From a virus (taxonomy: Duplodnaviria; Heunggongvirae; Uroviricota; Caudoviricetes), in IMG/VR virus record IMGVR_UViG_2718217885_000003, positions 1-11,575 of that record: DNA of 11,575 nt; one strand, given 5' to 3'. Within the stretch, counting starts at the first letter, position 1. Each line of letters begins with the position of its first letter. The position numbers and the translations under genes were made by a program. Below, piece after piece: positions 1 through 9,601 of the stretch. The notes beneath the pieces were generated by a model. The model was not told the DNA's origin. It made no database searches and worked only from the letters and a program-made list of their open reading frames with translations.

Positions 1-303
1 TTACTTCCTGCGTTTATCCCGCTTTGTATGTCCGTGCTGAATGCCCCGCAGTGGATCTTCTTTTTTCAGGTCGATCCCCATGTCCGTTAGTGTTTTTGTG
101 GCGGCGGTTCTTATGGCACAAATCAGGTCTCTTTCCGGTTCCCGGGTTATGGTTGCCTTCCGGATACATGCCGTTCGTCGTTCCGTTACATACTGACGCG
201 CTTCATCACTTGCCGCCTGTTTCAGTAACTCACCCCAGCGATTAGCCGCCCGTCGCCATAAACCTTTCGCTTCCAGTTCTTCCGCTTTGTCATCATGCAC
301 CAT
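1..303 (-). CDS. PerC-family-like transcriptional regulator (candidate), 100 aa
   Basis: Complete ORF with TAA at 1-3 on the minus strand. ATG at 303 has GGGA about 8 nt upstream; an alternative in-frame ATG is at 309. The N-terminal segment KAEELEAKGLWRRAANRW resembles the PerC/Pch signature as recalled; not verified by search. Confidence 0.45.
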   Translation of the reverse strand: MVHDDKAEELEAKGLWRRAANRWGELLKQAASDEARQYVTERRTACIRKATITREPERDLICAIRTAATKTLTDMGIDLKKEDPLRGIQHGHTKRDKRRK

Positions 304-417
304 AAGCATAATCCCATTGATACCTGTTAAATCTGAATGGTTGGTTTCTGTTCTTTTGATAATTTTCCGTATAGCTTATTGTATGACAGTACTGTCCCAC
401 AATAAGGAGTTGCACGC

Positions 418-1119: not shown

Positions 1120-1154
1120 TGTGCCCCCCATCGTTCTGGCTGTCTGGTGTCGTC

Positions 1155-1228
1155 GGGTCCTTCCTGGAATTATGGCCCGTTACGGGGCGGCGACCTCGCG
1201 GTTTTTCACTATTTATGAGATTTTTTAG
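1155..1228 (+). other. lambda-type cos site, copy A: cosQ-like GGGTCCTTCCTGG, then cosN with the 12-nt cohesive-end sequence GGGCGGCGACCT at 1185-1196
   Basis: 1179-1206 GTTACGGGGCGGCGACCTCGCGGTTTTT matches the phage lambda cos junction from memory and continues with CACTATTTATGAGATTTT (lambda: CGCTATTTATGAAAATTTT). It is a perfect inverted copy of 1799-1826. Confidence 0.7.
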
Positions 1229-1385
1229 GGGGTGGTTGTTGTTTAATTGTTTGTCATATCTATTTGATAACTAAGTAAAAATAGAGAGCAATACAACAAC
1301 CTGATAGTGTTTTTTGATGCTACAAATAAAAAAAATGCTAATTGAATCAAATAGTTTTACAAAAATACGTGGTTGTTGTATTGCG
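1229..1385 (+). repeat. cosB-like region of cos copy A: three GGTTGTTGT repeats (direct, inverted, direct) with an AT-rich spacer
   Basis: GGTTGTTGT at 1234-1242, ACAACAACC at 1293-1301 and GGTTGTTGT at 1371-1379; 1288-1301 and 1371-1384 form a perfect 14-bp inverted repeat. The layout parallels lambda R3-I1-R2-R1 at similar distances from cosN. Confidence 0.5.
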
Positions 1386-1433
1386 TATTTGATGGCGTAA
1401 CAGAAAGTGATTTTGAACTTTGCTGTTCTGTGA

Positions 1434-1643
1434 CTACTGATTGTTCCATGCTGGCGCGGCGAACGCTTCGGCATGACGCCACCCAGCCAGAAAACCAGCC
1501 ATTTTATTTCGTGCTTTGCTCACATCTTCCGGTGAGTAGCCGTAAATCTGTAAACCTTCATTGAATCGATGTTCTGTTTCTTCACTTGAGTACTCGTCGC
1601 TCTCCGATGAAATCAGCCTGGCAACTTCAGTCTGCGTAGCCAC
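1434..1643 (-). CDS. hypothetical small protein, 69 aa, in the position lambda Nu1 occupies relative to cos copy B; candidate packaging-redirection (Rpp-like) factor
   Basis: GTG start at 1643-1641 with GAGGTGAGGA immediately upstream; stop TAG at 1434-1436 on the complement. It begins about 180 nt after the cosN of copy B. No HTH or other recognisable motif; acidic stretch SSESDEYSSEETEH. Confidence 0.4.
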   Translation of the reverse strand: MATQTEVARLISSESDEYSSEETEHRFNEGLQIYGYSPEDVSKARNKMAGFLAGWRHAEAFAAPAWNNQ

Positions 1644-1666
1644 TCCTCACCTCACAATCACGACAA

Positions 1667-1772
1667 AACCGGTCATGTCCGGTTTACATGTCTATTTTTT
1701 GCGCATGTCCGGTTCATGGAAAGCCTATTTTTATATTTTTCATATAGTTAACTTGCAGAGAAACCGGACATG
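1667..1772 (-). repeat. cosB-like region of cos copy B: three CATGTCCGGTT repeats with an AT-rich spacer
   Basis: CATGTCCGGTT at 1674-1684 (inside the inverted repeat AACCGGTCATGTCCGGTT, 1667-1684) and at 1704-1714; inverted copy AACCGGACATG at 1762-1772. AT-rich block 1717-1760. Distances from cosN (about 49, 107 and 140 nt) resemble lambda R3/R2/R1. Confidence 0.5.
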
Positions 1773-1782
1773 GATCCCGGAA

Positions 1783-1852
1783 AATTTTCATAAATAGCGA
1801 AAAACCGCGAGGTCGCCGCCCCGTAACAGGTCCATATGCCGGAAAGGACCCG
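1783..1852 (-). other. lambda-type cos site, copy B (minus orientation): cosQ-like GGGTCCTTTCCGG, cosN cohesive-end sequence at 1810-1821
   Basis: The reverse complement of 1781-1852 reads GGGTCCTTTCCGGCATATGGACCTGTTACGGGGCGGCGACCTCGCGGTTTTTCGCTATTTATGAAAATTTTCCGG, near-identical to the lambda cos junction as recalled. It lies directly downstream of the capsid-operon terminator. Confidence 0.75.
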
Positions 1853-1853
1853 C

Positions 1854-1875
1854 AAAAAAGCCGGATTTCTCCGGC
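1854..1875 (-). terminator. rho-independent terminator of the capsid operon
   Basis: On the minus strand, GCCGGAGAAATCCGGC stem-loop followed by TTTTTT, immediately 3' of the CDS ending at 1882. Confidence 0.8.
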
Positions 1876-1881
1876 CTTGTC

Positions 1882-2295
1882 TCAGATGGTTTTCAGTATG
1901 CGATCAATGTCGCCGTCATCGCCCGGGTTTCTGCCATCGTATGCCATGCCAGCTGATACGGCTTGTGGGCTGTGCATGTCCATAAAGTTTTCAAAGGCTG
2001 CGGTAAGCTCTGGTGCAACCTTCTGGCGTTCCTGTTCTATGGTCATGTTCAGGATGTTTTTAGCCGTATCAACATCAATACAAGGCACGTTTGCCATTGC
2101 ACGTAACAGCGGCTGATAGTCGTCAGATTCATAAAGCGACATAATCGCATCAGCGCGCGGCTTGTCCTGTTCTTCCAGTTTGTTAAGTTGATATATAGCT
2201 TCGTAGGTTGATAGACATCTGTCAGCCATTGCCCGCGCTTCAGCTTTAAATTTACTCGCCAGCGGTAGCGCCATGATACTTTCATTCGTTGCCAT
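1882..2295 (-). CDS. hypothetical protein, 137 aa, last gene of the capsid operon (possible scaffold or size-determination factor; unassigned)
   Basis: ATG at 2295 preceded by GGGGGGAACG (strong SD); the longer track ORF to 2406 overlaps the upstream gene and lacks an SD. Acidic, helix-prone composition. No family recognised. Confidence 0.6.
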   Translation of the reverse strand: MATNESIMALPLASKFKAEARAMADRCLSTYEAIYQLNKLEEQDKPRADAIMSLYESDDYQPLLRAMANVPCIDVDTAKNILNMTIEQERQKVAPELTAAFENFMDMHSPQAVSAGMAYDGRNPGDDGDIDRILKTI

Positions 2296-2308
2296 CGTTC
2301 CCCCCTGC

Positions 2309-2644
2309 TTATCGCGCCAGCGGCTGAACAGATACACCAGAACCCGCAAAGGCGGCACATTTTTTCGCGTCGGTGTCGACGCTCTCAGGCCAGTTAACGG
2401 CGGCAATATTGAATATCCCCGTCTTGTAACACTGTGCTGATTTCTGCGTTGACGTGTCCACGGGATACGCCGTCAGATAAACAGCCTTGCCAGATTCCTG
2501 ACCATCCCACGGCTTAAATTCGCCATTGTCCGCCAGCATCAGCGGGGTAAATTCCTGAATAACGCCAGCATCAGCGGCAAAATGTACCAGCGTCGTGGCA
2601 ACCTGCTGACTGCCTGCAAATAACTCAATGTATGGAGTGTCCAT
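2309..2644 (-). CDS. head decoration protein, lambda gpD-like, 111 aa
   Basis: Segment TPLMLADNGEFKPWDG...CYKTGIFNIAAVNWPE...KKCAAFAGSGVSVQ parallels lambda gpD (TPLMLDTSSRKLVAWDG...FYKSGTFRYEDVLWPE...KKRTAFAGTAISIV, from memory). SD GGGGGA 5 nt upstream of ATG 2644. Confidence 0.8.
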   Translation of the reverse strand: MDTPYIELFAGSQQVATTLVHFAADAGVIQEFTPLMLADNGEFKPWDGQESGKAVYLTAYPVDTSTQKSAQCYKTGIFNIAAVNWPESVDTDAKKCAAFAGSGVSVQPLAR

Positions 2645-2655
2645 AGAATCCCCCG

Positions 2656-3711
2656 TTAACCAATTTTGACGGTAACAAATTTGCGAATATCTGCCGGAAC
2701 CGGCTGCGGTGCGCTGTGCGTCTGCACGTACTCAATCGCCGGATCGCCGTCCTCAATCCAGTTTTTCGGGTAAAACATGTTTTGCGTTGCGCCCGTTCTG
2801 ACCGCTTCCTGATCCATAATCGCACCATAGGCCACCAGCCCTTTATTGTTGGTGTTGCCCAGGACCAGCAAATCAGGCTCAAGGAAATATTTTTCGGTGC
2901 CGTCGCTGTCAGTGTATTTGCCGGAATAGACGATAAGGGCAATATCGCCCAGATATCCTTTAAAGCTCACCACTTCGCCCAGGTTTTTACAGGCCAGCTC
3001 TGCGGAGGACTCTGAACCACGGGAAAGATCGTACAGTTCGCGGAATTTTTTAAAGCTGCGTAACGTTCGCCATACCTCAGCGCCCATGATCATGACGTTG
3101 GCGGGGCAACCTGCTTGATCCGCATAAAGCTCGATATCATAGATTGGATCGTGGGTTTCTTTGTCCTGCTCGGACCATTTACGGCCTTTGGCCTGCTCTA
3201 TGATGTTTTTTTCCGGTATCTTCCAGTCGATTTCATAGCGTTCTATGCCTTCGCCCTCAATGATGTTTTTTCCGGTCGTTACCGCATTCACCGCCAGCCA
3301 TTCCACGCGCGCTTTAATCGCGTTTATCTGGCGGCGCATGTTGCCAGTAATCAGGCGCATACGGCGATAGGTTGGGTCATTAAGCTGTGCCGGATCTTCT
3401 CCAGCCATACGCATGATGGTTTTCGTTGGATCGATTTCGTGCTTCGGCTTCATGTATCCAGGTTTAATCGTGCTGGTTTCGTACCCTTTATCGCGCTGGA
3501 CCTGACTACCCACCATAGGCGAACAAAACGCCGACATCGTAACCTCTTCAATGTCCAGGGTGTCCAGCATGATGCTTTGGGTGTTGAATGTCGCCACGTT
3601 CGGGAAAAACAGCGTGGTAAACAGCGGACTGAATTTAAATTCCGCAATATCCCCGCGATTCAGGTACGCGAAAAGCTGGTTAGTGTTAAGTGCCGTTGCT
3701 TTGCCTGCCAT
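2656..3711 (-). CDS. major capsid protein, lambda gpE family, 351 aa
   Basis: Multiple conserved blocks versus lambda gpE (from memory): FKFSPLF..LFF, PGYMKPKHEIDP, EDPAQLNDPTYRRMRLITGNMR, WSEQDKETHDP, LRSFK, SRGSESSAEL..LGEVVSFKGYLGDIALIVYSGKY, LVLGNTNNKGL.AYG, YPKNWIEDGDPA. Start ATG overlaps the upstream stop (TAATG). Confidence 0.9.
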   Translation of the reverse strand: MAGKATALNTNQLFAYLNRGDIAEFKFSPLFTTLFFPNVATFNTQSIMLDTLDIEEVTMSAFCSPMVGSQVQRDKGYETSTIKPGYMKPKHEIDPTKTIMRMAGEDPAQLNDPTYRRMRLITGNMRRQINAIKARVEWLAVNAVTTGKNIIEGEGIERYEIDWKIPEKNIIEQAKGRKWSEQDKETHDPIYDIELYADQAGCPANVMIMGAEVWRTLRSFKKFRELYDLSRGSESSAELACKNLGEVVSFKGYLGDIALIVYSGKYTDSDGTEKYFLEPDLLVLGNTNNKGLVAYGAIMDQEAVRTGATQNMFYPKNWIEDGDPAIEYVQTHSAPQPVPADIRKFVTVKIG

Positions 3712-7687: not shown

Positions 7688-7919
7688 AACCCCCCCCATT
7701 TTCACAATCAGCAATCAGGATGGCTTTAGCCTCATTCAGTGCCATTTCAGCGGTAAGCTGTGCGTAGGCCAGCGAATGGGGGATTATTGCCCCTGTATAT
7801 TCCGGCTCTCTGGTAATGTGTTTTTCTGCGGTTGCTGCCGTGCATGAAATATCAATCAGCGCATCCATCAGCGTTTTGATGGCTTCGGCGGCTGCGTCCG
7901 GACGGGGGTTATTGCACAT
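7680..7919 (-). CDS. hypothetical protein, 79 aa
   Basis: ATG at 7919 with AGGAGG 7 nt upstream; overlaps the 3' end of the upstream gene by 11 nt. Confidence 0.55.
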   Translation of the reverse strand: MCNNPRPDAAAEAIKTLMDALIDISCTAATAEKHITREPEYTGAIIPHSLAYAQLTAEMALNEAKAILIADCENGGGYA

Positions 7920-8277
7920 GGCGCACCTCCTGACGAATACGGGCGGCGAATACCATCACGCAGCCAGCCGGGGATTGCTGGCGGGCTTCCTGTTCGCTGG
8001 TGGCCTCAATGGTAATCACGCGCGGTTGTGCCGTGCTCAGGGCGATAAAACGCCAGATAAAATTGTTTTCGCATTTCTGAATAAACAACGTGTTTTCTTC
8101 GCGCCCTTTCCATGTTGCCGAGATATAGCCCATGTCATTGAGCATCTCGCAGGCATCAACCAGCGTATCGGCGGCTACATGTACAGTGTTTTTACCGTCA
8201 GCTATGCAATCACGGTGCACCGCCAGGAAGGTGTATATAAATTTAGGGTGAGTTTGGGTATGCTGTGTTCCAGCCAT
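7909..8277 (-). CDS. hypothetical protein, 122 aa, first gene of the replication operon
   Basis: ATG at 8277 with AGGAG 8 nt upstream. It is the 3' part of a spurious 562-aa track ORF (7909-9597) whose upstream portion is antisense to the plus-strand cassette. Confidence 0.6.
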   Translation of the reverse strand: MAGTQHTQTHPKFIYTFLAVHRDCIADGKNTVHVAADTLVDACEMLNDMGYISATWKGREENTLFIQKCENNFIWRFIALSTAQPRVITIEATSEQEARQQSPAGCVMVFAARIRQEVRHVQ

Positions 8278-8306
8278 AATCGTTACTCCTATTAACGGTT
8301 TGGTTA

Positions 8307-8448
8307 GAAGCCCCGTTACTGCTCCAACAGTGCGGGGCTTCGTCGTTTCAATTGCTGAATTGCATGTATCAGCCCTTGTGGTATTCAGATTACATTTTGG
8401 TGAATACCATTTCAAGTCTTTTTTGGTATTCACTTTTGTATTACACTG
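8307..8448. promoter_or_regulatory. divergent control region: stem-loop plus TGGTATTCA repeats
   Basis: Stem-loop GAAGCCCCG...CGGGGCTTC at 8307-8341. TGGTATTCA at 8379-8387 and 8425-8433, with inverted copy TGAATACCA at 8401-8409 (9-bp inverted repeat, 13-bp spacer). Lies between divergent genes starting at 8277 (minus) and 8477 (plus). Confidence 0.4.
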
Positions 8449-8476
8449 CATCCCGTTATTAATCGGAGGTGCAAAC

Positions 8477-8782
8477 ATGTCCACGAGTTCTGTTAACAAT
8501 AAATCACAGCAACTGAATGCCAGATTTCCACATGAAGTAGTGAGTGGCATTGAGGCATCCCTACAGCCAGGGGAAACTAAAGCGAATTTTATAGTTACGG
8601 CTGTACGCGGTGAGATCGCCCGCCGCCAGGCAGAAGGAAGCGGAGAAAACCCCCTGGTTTCTTCGCTCGATGCACTGGCGCAGGTGGAAAAAATCGGAGT
8701 CAAAGCTGCCGAGGAGATCGGGCAGCTCGTCACCGTCGCACGTGAAGAACTACAGCGCCGCAAGGCCAAAGAATCAGAATAA
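8477..8782 (+). CDS. ribbon-helix-helix-like DNA-binding protein, 101 aa, first gene of the counter-oriented cassette
   Basis: ATG at 8477 with GGAGGTG 7 nt upstream; double stop TAATAA. QLNARFPHEVVSGIEASL ... TKANFIVTAVRGEIARRQ fits a strand-helix-helix pattern. The longer track ORF from 8300 has no SD. Confidence 0.55.
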   Translation: MSTSSVNNKSQQLNARFPHEVVSGIEASLQPGETKANFIVTAVRGEIARRQAEGSGENPLVSSLDALAQVEKIGVKAAEEIGQLVTVAREELQRRKAKESE

Positions 8783-8839
8783 TAACTATCATCGCCGTGG
8801 TGTGAGGAACTCCGGCGCATTGCTTTACAGGTACACAGA

Positions 8840-9022
8840 ATGACCAACAACGAATCAACCAATACACCATCACCGGCACGGAAAAGACAGCGCAGAAAGA
8901 TAGCGCATGAGCATGAGTCAGAAAGATTCGCACCATGTGCTTTTGCTCTTGAGAAATTCCTAAAAGAGTACAGGAAAACGCGCCCATTGCAGGTATGGCA
9001 ACGTAACGAACAAAAAGGTTGA
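8840..9022 (+). CDS. hypothetical small basic protein, 60 aa
   Basis: ATG at 8840 with AGGT about 7 nt upstream. Lys/Arg-rich. Same reading frame as the two following small ORFs. Confidence 0.35.
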   Translation: MTNNESTNTPSPARKRQRRKIAHEHESERFAPCAFALEKFLKEYRKTRPLQVWQRNEQKG

Positions 9023-9025
9023 TGT

Positions 9026-9157
9026 ATGACCAGGAAGCAGACAGATAACAAACCATTGCTACCAGAGAATAAATCAGCGGGATTTTTACCGGAAAAAGTG
9101 CTACATGAGCTAAAATTCCGCCAGCGTAAAAAATCCAAAGAAACAGACAAAGAATAA
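9026..9157 (+). CDS. hypothetical small basic protein, 43 aa (below the ORF-track size cutoff)
   Basis: ATG at 9026, 3 nt after the TGA of the preceding ORF (TGATGTATG), same frame; ends TAA at 9155-9157. Translation read manually: MTRKQTDNKPLLPENKSAGFLPEKVLHELKFRQRKKSKETDKE. Confidence 0.25.
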   Translation: MTRKQTDNKPLLPENKSAGFLPEKVLHELKFRQRKKSKETDKE

Positions 9158-9160
9158 CTT

Positions 9161-9325
9161 ATGCACCAAATACTATACTGGCTCGGATCTCTGTTTGTAT
9201 TTGCATTTCTCATGAAATATTGCATTAGCAATGAACCTGCCGACAATGAAAGTACATGCGGGAGTGCTGAAAAAGATATTCCACCTCTCGTATATGAAAA
9301 TGAAAGCCCTGTGCACCGCAATTGA
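9161..9325 (+). CDS. hypothetical small membrane peptide, 54 aa (single predicted transmembrane helix)
   Basis: ATG at 9161, 3 nt after the preceding TAA, same frame. Manual translation MHQILYWLGSLFVFAFLMKYCISNEPADNESTCGSAEKDIPPLVYENESPVHRN has a 19-residue hydrophobic N-terminal segment. A terminator follows at 9423-9450. Confidence 0.3.
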   Translation: MHQILYWLGSLFVFAFLMKYCISNEPADNESTCGSAEKDIPPLVYENESPVHRN

Positions 9326-9422
9326 GCGAAATTTAATGAATTCACTCTTTGCCCACCAGCCGCAAATGTGGCATTGTTGGCAATGCTCATGCGTTGGGGA
9401 TAACGTGTAGCTTGTGTCGAAT

Positions 9423-9450
9423 GGCCACCGTAGCAGGTGGCCTTTGTTTT
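9423..9450 (+). terminator. rho-independent terminator of the plus-strand cassette
   Basis: GGCCACC-GTAGCA-GGTGGCC followed by TTTGTTTT. Confidence 0.75.
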
Positions 9451-9488
9451 GCCTGTTATCCGGCAATTGTGGCGCTTCGTCACACGGT

Positions 9489-9574
9489 TGATATAATTCC
9501 CCTGCACTGATCCATTTTTTTCGCAGCAGGTTAATTGTTCACAAGGGCGCTCCGGCAACGGGGCGCTTTTTGTT
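9489..9574 (+). ncRNA. candidate small RNA (about 70 nt) between an extended -10 promoter and a second plus-strand terminator, opposite the 3' end of alpA
   Basis: TGATATAAT (9489-9497) fits the extended -10 pattern TGnTATAAT. Terminator GCGCTCCG-GCAA-CGGGGCGC plus TTTTTGTT at 9547-9574. No ORF of meaningful length between them. Confidence 0.2.
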
Positions 9575-9601
9575 ATGTTCATTGCGTTACACCTCACACC
9601 A

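Follow-up and report, generated by a model that had tools for sequence, protein, structure and literature searches.

The locus described here raises the question of why a phage satellite should carry two cohesive-end (cos) packaging sites that face one another. It lies in a stretch of 11,575 nucleotides, filed in IMG/VR as the Caudoviricetes record IMGVR_UViG_2718217885_000003 and referred to below as the window, which matches E. coli GB089 (NZ_CP013663.1) at 100% identity and there covers an island of ~12 kb, situated between a yejO pseudogene and tRNA-Pro with host genes on both flanks. By gene set and gene order, this island can be identified as a cos-type phage-inducible chromosomal island (PICI) of the EcCICFT073 family. 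To judge from its composition, the interval 1154–1852 would be the packaging cassette of the island, with a shared part predicted to be read by the large terminase (TerL) and a differing part, cosB, by the small terminase (TerS). It seems fairly probable that both sites are used, with cosmid-like packaging, each by its own class of helper phage.

Dual cos sites are a known property of this PICI family, and the supposition of the initial annotation that inverted pairs had gone undescribed in satellites does not stand, as cos1 and cos2 of EcCICFT073 had already been reported and tested (PMC6092414, PMC6739421). Each of the two cosN sequences of EcCICFT073 works when cloned, deletion of cos1 lowers transfer by lambda and phi80, and the double deletion abolishes it (Fillol-Salom et al. 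2018 ISME J, PMC6092414; two putative cos sites in SaPIbov4 are also mentioned there). RppA (c1503) was then reported to bind the helper TerS, forming a complex that reads the cosB of cos1, while both EcCICFT073 cosBs were termed ‘completely divergent’ from phage cosB and it was left open why there should be two sites (Fillol-Salom et al. 2019 Mol Cell, PMC6739421). The published Rpp-TerS model covers cos1 and leaves the second site unexplained; a later analysis dealt with cos1 only (Murialdo & Feiss 2022, PMC9026076), and no paper explaining cos2 was found in the literature after 2019. What is new in the island studied here is the combination of absent Rpp function with two phage-type cosB modules.

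The two sites are built on a perfect 28-bp inverted repeat, GTTACGGGGCGGCGACCTCGCGGTTTTT, which was read directly at 1179–1206 and as its exact reverse complement at 1800–1827; the initial annotation had recognised the repeat but placed its second copy one position too early, at 1799–1826. A perfect inverted repeat of 28 nt has a chance expectation of ~1e-9 in 11.6 kb (N^2/2 x 4^-28). A repeat search extended the similarity to arms of 77 nt that are 83% complementary and 545 nt apart, in keeping with the flanking similarity of about 70 bp noted earlier. Both copies contain the 12-nt cohesive end GGGCGGCGACCT, in convergent orientation and identical to the annotated lambda DE3 cos, which bears out the initial annotation in equating the core with the lambda cos junction. 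The accompanying claim of a match to the right end of lambda is correct for copy B, which has the exact lambda cosQ box GGGTCCTTTCCGG, and not for copy A, which has GGGTCCTTCCTGG instead.

Nine cos regions were aligned, comprising those of lambda, both window copies, phage PhiR12_1, two prophages, cos1 and cos2 of EcCICFT073, and a 21-type prophage. Three blocks are near-invariant across them: the cosQ box (GGGTCCTT.C.G), the cohesive end with its flanks (GTTACG-GGGCGGCGACCT-CGCG), and an I2-like block (TTTTC.CTATTTATGA); 3' of these blocks the nine regions split by class. Both window copies have the cosN with conserved flanks, the upstream cosQ, and the R3-type site, some 49–64 bp from the nick, followed by further R repeats that characterise lambda-family cos sites. 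Over the 37 nt that precede cosN, copy A is identical to the c1504-side flank of EcCICFT073 cos2, a site known from experiment to be functional, and the cosQ–cosN half of copy B is nearly identical to that of the tested EcCICFT073 site. We regard both copies, with high confidence, as genuine and family-typical cos sites, of which copy A would be expected to direct packaging rightwards and copy B leftwards. That the duplication might have arisen in assembly is refuted: the same 801 bp recur at 99–100% in three independent complete genomes, the layout is found in many related loci, and the two sites of EcCICFT073 have been verified experimentally (PMC6092414). Feature coordinates are collected in Table 1.

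Table 1. Features of the cos cassette, in window coordinates.
Feature	Position	Strand	Remarks
Left arm, copy A cosQ-cosN-I2-like part	1154..1230	+	Repeat search; cos alignment
cosQ-like box, copy A, GGGTCCTTCCTGG	1155..1167	+	11/13 positions as in lambda GGGTCCTTTCCGG
cosN cohesive end, copy A, GGGCGGCGACCT	1185..1196	+	Identical to lambda DE3 cos
cosB, copy A	1197..1390	+	I2-like block 1197-1218, then three R-like repeats
69-aa chimeric open reading frame	1434..1643	-	PhiR12-type terS codons joined to C-terminal part of rppA
cosB, copy B	1646..1809	-	I2-like block 1809-1788, then R-like CATGTCCGGTT units
Right arm, copy B cosQ-cosN-I2-like part	1776..1852	-	Repeat search
cosN cohesive end, copy B, AGGTCGCCGCCC on + strand	1810..1821	-	
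cosQ-like box, copy B, GGGTCCTTTCCGG	1839..1851	-	Identical to lambda
Terminator-like hairpin, GCCGGAGAAATCCGGC then TTTTTT on - strand	1854..1875	-	Read from sequence

The hairpin listed last sits between the stop codon of a scaffold-like gene and the cosQ of copy B and is conserved in relatives; a terminator consensus scan did not list it. The same scan gave weak hairpin-T-run matches in the cosN regions, which were judged to be coincidences.

Beyond the I2-like block the two copies part company. Counting from the first base of the cohesive end as +1, the lambda repeats R3, R2 and R1 start at +49, +109 and +150, and the earlier observation that the two copies have different repeat sets at lambda-like distances (GGTTGTTGT against CATGTCCGGTT, at +50 and +108/109) was confirmed. 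In copy B, units of CATGTCCGGTT occupy 1772–1762 (+50, forward), 1714–1704 (+108, inverted) and 1684–1674 (+138, inverted), with a fourth, imperfect forward unit (10/11) at 1677–1667 (+145). Over 213 bp, from cosQ through cosB, copy B shares 92.5% identity with phage PhiR12_1; this match ends just before the start of Nu1 (terS), which in that phage lies directly downstream of cos–cosB and is followed by gpA. Copy B is also 90.5% identical over 179 bp to the cos2 of EcCICFT073, and corresponds to the published cos2 cosB. Of 5426 complete E. coli genomes, 831 have a cosB of this PhiR12 type, which in prophages stands at the start of the annotated terminase small subunit gene.

The R-like unit of copy A, GGTTGTTGT, occurs at 1234–1242 (+50, forward), 1293–1301 (+109, inverted) and 1371–1379 (+187, forward), and its R2-like and R1-like units extend to a perfect 14-nt inverted pair (1288–1301 / 1371–1384). 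The cosB of copy A is 77–81% identical, over 180–195 bp, to the interval between cosN and terS in two prophages, those of E. coli O111:H- 11128 (locus L006) and K56-43-un (L008), where it lies upstream of terS–terL; both prophages have the three GGTTGTTGT units at the same positions as copy A.

Comparison of the terminases shows how these two phage classes are related. PhiR12 and the O111 prophage have TerL proteins that are 98.3% identical and TerS proteins that are 90% identical from residue 66 to the end, with only 27% identity over TerS residues 1–65, the DNA-binding domain. The two classes thus appear to be specificity variants of a single terminase lineage, like lambda and 21, and the island would hold the cognate cosB of each. 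The suggestion in the initial annotation that the element can be packaged by two helper classes consequently gains comparative support: each cosB is native to one class, and the TerS DNA-binding domains of the classes are unrelated. The parallel with lambda and 21 extends to the 12-nt cohesive end, cosQ, the I2-like block and the R3- and R2-like repeats at the same distances, and to the way in which the cosB class changes with the N-terminal domain of TerS while TerL compatibility is kept. It differs in that the R-repeat sequences are others, and in that the window sites form an inverted pair on a satellite without terminase genes.

Some further observations concern the O111-type TerS. The DNA encoding its N-terminal domain (L006, 2700–2830) is ~76% identical to gene 1 of phage N15; the cosB DNA upstream of terS in the O111 11128 prophage has no N15 match. 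In many relatives (E. coli 7_11_88A, locus L003, 3276–3818, and 39 IMG/VR loci), a full-length, 180-aa TerS-like protein takes the place of Rpp. Over the first 65 residues this protein shares 51% identity with the TerS of the O111 prophage, and its gene is preceded by a cosB with GGTGGTGGT repeats that resembles the copy A cosB. The GATC-type cosB of L003 has a weak phage match, at 72%, to SerU-LTIIb near its nu1 gene.

Between the two sites lies the remnant of an Rpp gene. The first nine codons of the 69-aa chimeric open reading frame (ORF) encode the N-terminus of PhiR12 TerS (VATQTEVAR, identical), and the remaining ~60 residues closely match RppA from about residue 79, its dimerisation helices; the only match in the PDB is to RppC residues 83–126. 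Compared with RppA/B/C (PDB 6HLK, 6HN7), only the C-terminal ~60 residues are matched, and the domain that mimics the TerS DNA-binding domain and reads cos1, a winged helix spanning Rpp residues 1–64 (PMC6739421), is absent. The fusion is in frame, at a 9-bp microhomology, TTGCCAGGC, common to phage terS and rppA. Relative to islands of the E. coli AREA_492 type, 283 bp (the cos1 cosB and the 5' half of rppA) are replaced by 150 bp (phage cosB and nine codons), and the chimera is best read as the record of a recombination event between island and phage, in which a PhiR12-type phage would have exchanged cos1 and the first ~79 codons of rppA for its own cosB and nine terS codons.

The gene order of capsid, decoration, c1501-like gene, cassette and c1504-like gene is shared with EcCICFT073, as are the two convergent cos sites, the lambda-identical cosN, the cosQ–cosN flanks, and a cos2 cosB equivalent to that of window copy B. 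EcCICFT073 differs in having at cos1 a short cosB (GGTGACACCACCACCAC) read by RppA-TerS, together with a full-length rppA, both absent here; the window island has instead a prophage-type cosB (GGTTGTTGT) at the other site and the 69-aa remnant. It contains neither an Rpp with the N-terminal winged helix-turn-helix nor a cos1-type cosB (GGTGACACCACC-type), and accordingly belongs to the EcCICFT073 family by synteny while standing outside its Rpp-dependent subtype. As the DNA-binding domain of Rpp and cos1 are both gone, redirection of the Rpp type cannot run here as described. The alternative offered initially, that helper TerS acts at one site and a redirected TerS at the other, fits EcCICFT073, with its cos1 and RppA, and fails for this island because there is no cos1-type cosB and the truncated Rpp lacks the DNA-binding domain.

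The observed anatomy and homologies can be turned into a mechanism by drawing on lambda biology and on the EcCICFT073 experiments. Upon induction of a helper, the island would excise (int/alpA) and replicate into concatemers by means of its primase. Unmodified helper TerS–TerL would bind whichever cosB suits that TerS, as it would on a cosmid, after which TerL would nick the adjacent cosN and the DNA would enter the head with cosB leading, to the right from copy A or to the left from copy B. Packaging would stop at the next cos of the same orientation with a phage-sized head nearly full, at ~3–4 island units. The non-cognate inverted site would be passed uncut, silent for the given helper, and no specificity factor encoded by the island would be needed; with the non-cognate site silent, two sites are proposed to double the helper range. 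Mimicry of a helper packaging site, with the helper terminase unmodified, is the likeness proposed here to SaPIbov5, P4 and 11capE, satellites equipped with the cos of their helper; the last of them, a helper-embedded PICI, shares with its helper a 258-bp stretch at the cos position at 90% (bioRxiv preprint 10.1101/2022.07.18.500453). These satellites differ in serving one helper type, while the window island has two phage-type cosB modules, and the cos of P4 is of P2 type, unrelated in sequence to the window cos.

Several points weigh against this account of two helpers. No isolated phage in the phage collection was found to have the copy A cosB: copy A matched isolated phages through cosN and I2 only, and a query with the cosB/terS region of the O111 prophage matched only in the N15-like coding part of terS. 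The label ‘phage-type’ for copy A therefore rests on prophages, with which its identity is only 77–81%. The exact architecture of the window is rare, being present in 3 of the 5426 complete genomes, and together with the obvious recombination scar this means that one site could be a passenger. In favour of the account, the GB089 genome has elsewhere three more places with PhiR12-type cosB and one more matching the copy A cosB; these places, known as counts, may be inducible prophages or other islands. Deletion of cos2 in EcCICFT073 raised lambda-mediated transfer (PMC6092414), indicating that a second site can carry a cost. Lastly, it is from sequence that we infer dual-helper use, with the island as satellite and both phage classes as its helpers.

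The rarity and the scar lend themselves to a different explanation, in which one site is used and the other is a neutral relic of repeated homologous recombination between island and phage at the shared cosQ–cosN. Mosaic structure is indeed evident in the cassette, which has a microhomology junction and contains the remnant of a gene, and EcCICFT073 cos2 is dispensable for lambda- and phi80-mediated transfer (PMC6092414). What makes this explanation unlikely, though worth keeping in view, is a census of 80 IMG/VR loci that share the c1501-like gene, classified by their cos sites. Two convergent canonical sites were present in 51 of the 80, or in 51 of the 60 loci with a canonical cosN and enough flanking sequence, in five cosB pairings: cos1 with cos2 type (11 loci), cos1 with O111 type (8), island-TerS type with ‘GATC’ type (12), island-TerS type with a 21-like cosB (11), and PhiR12 type with O111 type, lacking rpp (9). 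In none of the 51 were both sites of the same cosB class, which would be unexpected of random scars, and neither window copy has lost any of its three R-like units or their spacing, both of which agree with the phage versions. The remaining loci comprise at least nine with a single cos despite enough flank, which favour the relic, 11 with a single cos in a locus too short to judge, and nine with no canonical cosN, six of them clearly with a different one. Among complete genomes, 33 further ones cover ~81% of the region, which agrees with the layout of AREA_492 (cos1, rppA and O111-type cos), and others look like SCU-172, in which both cos sites are phage-type and rppA has shrunk to a remnant of 22 codons.

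The loss of Rpp suggests another role for the second cos, namely that of a decoy that titrates or mis-engages the helper terminase and so replaces the interference lost with Rpp. Functional Rpp is absent from the island, the two cosBs match phage and prophage classes also represented elsewhere in the GB089 genome, and convergent sites can cut into productive packaging, as the effect of the cos2 deletion attests. Any functional cos on a replicating island would compete for terminase, however, making this a side effect rather than a separate mechanism, and relatives with an intact Rpp also keep the second cos; as the main function of the site, a decoy appears improbable.

The inverted arrangement of the repeats has also left its mark in the relatives, where an 813-bp segment between the cos sites is inverted, at 99.4% identity, in E. 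coli CFT073 (L005, 7529–8340) relative to AREA_499 (L004). By junction searches, the CFT073 orientation was found in 41 genomes and the reverse in 15, and the Rpp-less IMG/VR loci (among L041–L072) divide 5 to 4. These polymorphisms would be compatible with an invertible segment, bounded by the repeat, whose flipping turns rpp and cosB round with respect to the late operon. There is no adjacent invertase or recombinase gene, however, both cos sites are still complete and convergent after inversion, and occasional homologous recombination between inverted repeats of ~77 nt explains the polymorphism, so that a dedicated switch is very improbable. The inversion probably did arise by such recombination between the inverted cos arms; cuts at both cosN sites followed by re-ligation would allow an alternative route. 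The preferred reading remains that of two sites, each serving its own helper class.

Relatives also vary within cosN itself. Single-base variants (GGGCGTCGACCT, GGGCGGAGACCT, GGGCGACGACCT and GGGCGGCGGCCT) occur in L047, at both cos sites, and in L089/L090, L016–L020, L035, L052 and L081/L084; that the two copies of L047 share one variant hints at gene conversion between arms, or at matching to a helper cosN. In six relatives (L030–L032, L070, L088 and L091, around position 2970), the cohesive-end region is a different one (GGGCGGGAGCGGCGCAG...) and precedes a PhiR12-like cosB with CATGTCCGGTTT, from which it follows that cosN class and cosB class assort separately. In E. coli AREA_492 (L009, 778–2416), a sister island adjoins a truncated prophage gpA gene, with portal and head-tail genes beyond, and looks like the ‘helper-embedded satellite’ kind described in bioRxiv 10.1101/2022.07.18.500453.

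The remaining genes of the island bear on its classification. Pfam families comprise Phage_integrase, Phage_AlpA and D5_N/Pox_D5 (a D5-type primase), as well as DUF4222; these answer to the pattern of the EcCICFT073 family, with integrase, AlpA and primase in one direction in an island of ~10–20 kb at a specific att site, the present island having its ~12 kb next to tRNA-Pro. Other genes encode a single-stranded DNA-binding protein (SSB), a gpE-like major capsid protein, a gpD-like decoration protein (matching Phage_cap_E and HDPD) and a PerC-family regulator. The capsid (c1499-like) and decoration (c1500-like) genes are followed by the cos cassette, collinear with CFT073. Neither the window nor the RefSeq annotation of the island yielded a gene for a terminase, portal or protease, which sets the island apart from the capsid-forming PICIs (cf-PICIs), as these have all three, and head-tail connectors, of their own. 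A P4-like satellite is ruled out, as the cos is of lambda and not P2 type, and the P4 gene set (sid, psu, delta, alpha) was found in none of Pfam, PHROGs and the annotation.

A 137-aa protein resembles the C-terminal (scaffold) end of head maturation proteases (phrog_53), and its gene lies with those for the gpE-like capsid and gpD-like decoration proteins at 1882–3711 on the minus strand, where there is no portal or protease gene; removal of the capsid and decoration homologues from EcCICFT073 still did not restore lambda plaques (PMC6092414). The PerC-family transcriptional activator gene (1–309, minus strand) stands at the end of the island, past the cos cassette, and in relatives is placed elsewhere, between the SSB and capsid genes. 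The 97-aa ORF beside copy A (838–1131) was considered as a candidate Rpp and rejected, having no PDB match to RppC and only spurious ones to DARPins; it is a c1504-like protein (phrog_1561). Searches with the 98-aa ORF at 418–714 gave no informative match. A stop-free frame of 1.7 kb (7909–9597, minus strand; 562 codons), rich in Ser and Cys, overlaps three short plus-strand genes; it is treated as not real because it has low complexity and no family matches, and because RefSeq has at this place only a 122-aa Icd-like gene, at the 3' end of the frame.

Three points go beyond the published accounts, as far as sequence comparison carries: the cos2 cosB is the native cosB of PhiR12_1, the copy A cosB is of the O111/K56-43 prophage type, and the two classes are split by the DNA-binding domain of TerS. 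Together, these suggest an answer to the question of why there are two sites, namely that cos2 has a genuine phage cosB, that the classes of the paired sites differ, and that these classes track variants of the TerS DNA-binding domain. For the family as a whole, the cassette may be a modular helper-range device, with a cosB slot on each side of the shared cosQ–cosN repeat, specificities that always differ, and modules exchanged with helpers at cosN, each module being either taken over from a phage class or private, in which case it is read by way of an Rpp or TerS-like protein that the island itself encodes; we consider this evenly poised between right and wrong. On this view, sites of the cos2 type should be highly efficient for helpers of the PhiR12 type.

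Virulence and defence genes travel among enterobacteria on PICIs, and the phages that can mobilise an island set how it spreads. If the account is true, the helper range of an island would be readable from its cosB modules, the second site of EcCICFT073 would gain a function, and Rpp-less islands would have gone over from ‘redirect the terminase’ to ‘mimic two helpers’, with specificity cassettes of cosB and the TerS DNA-binding domain being shuffled between phages and their satellites.

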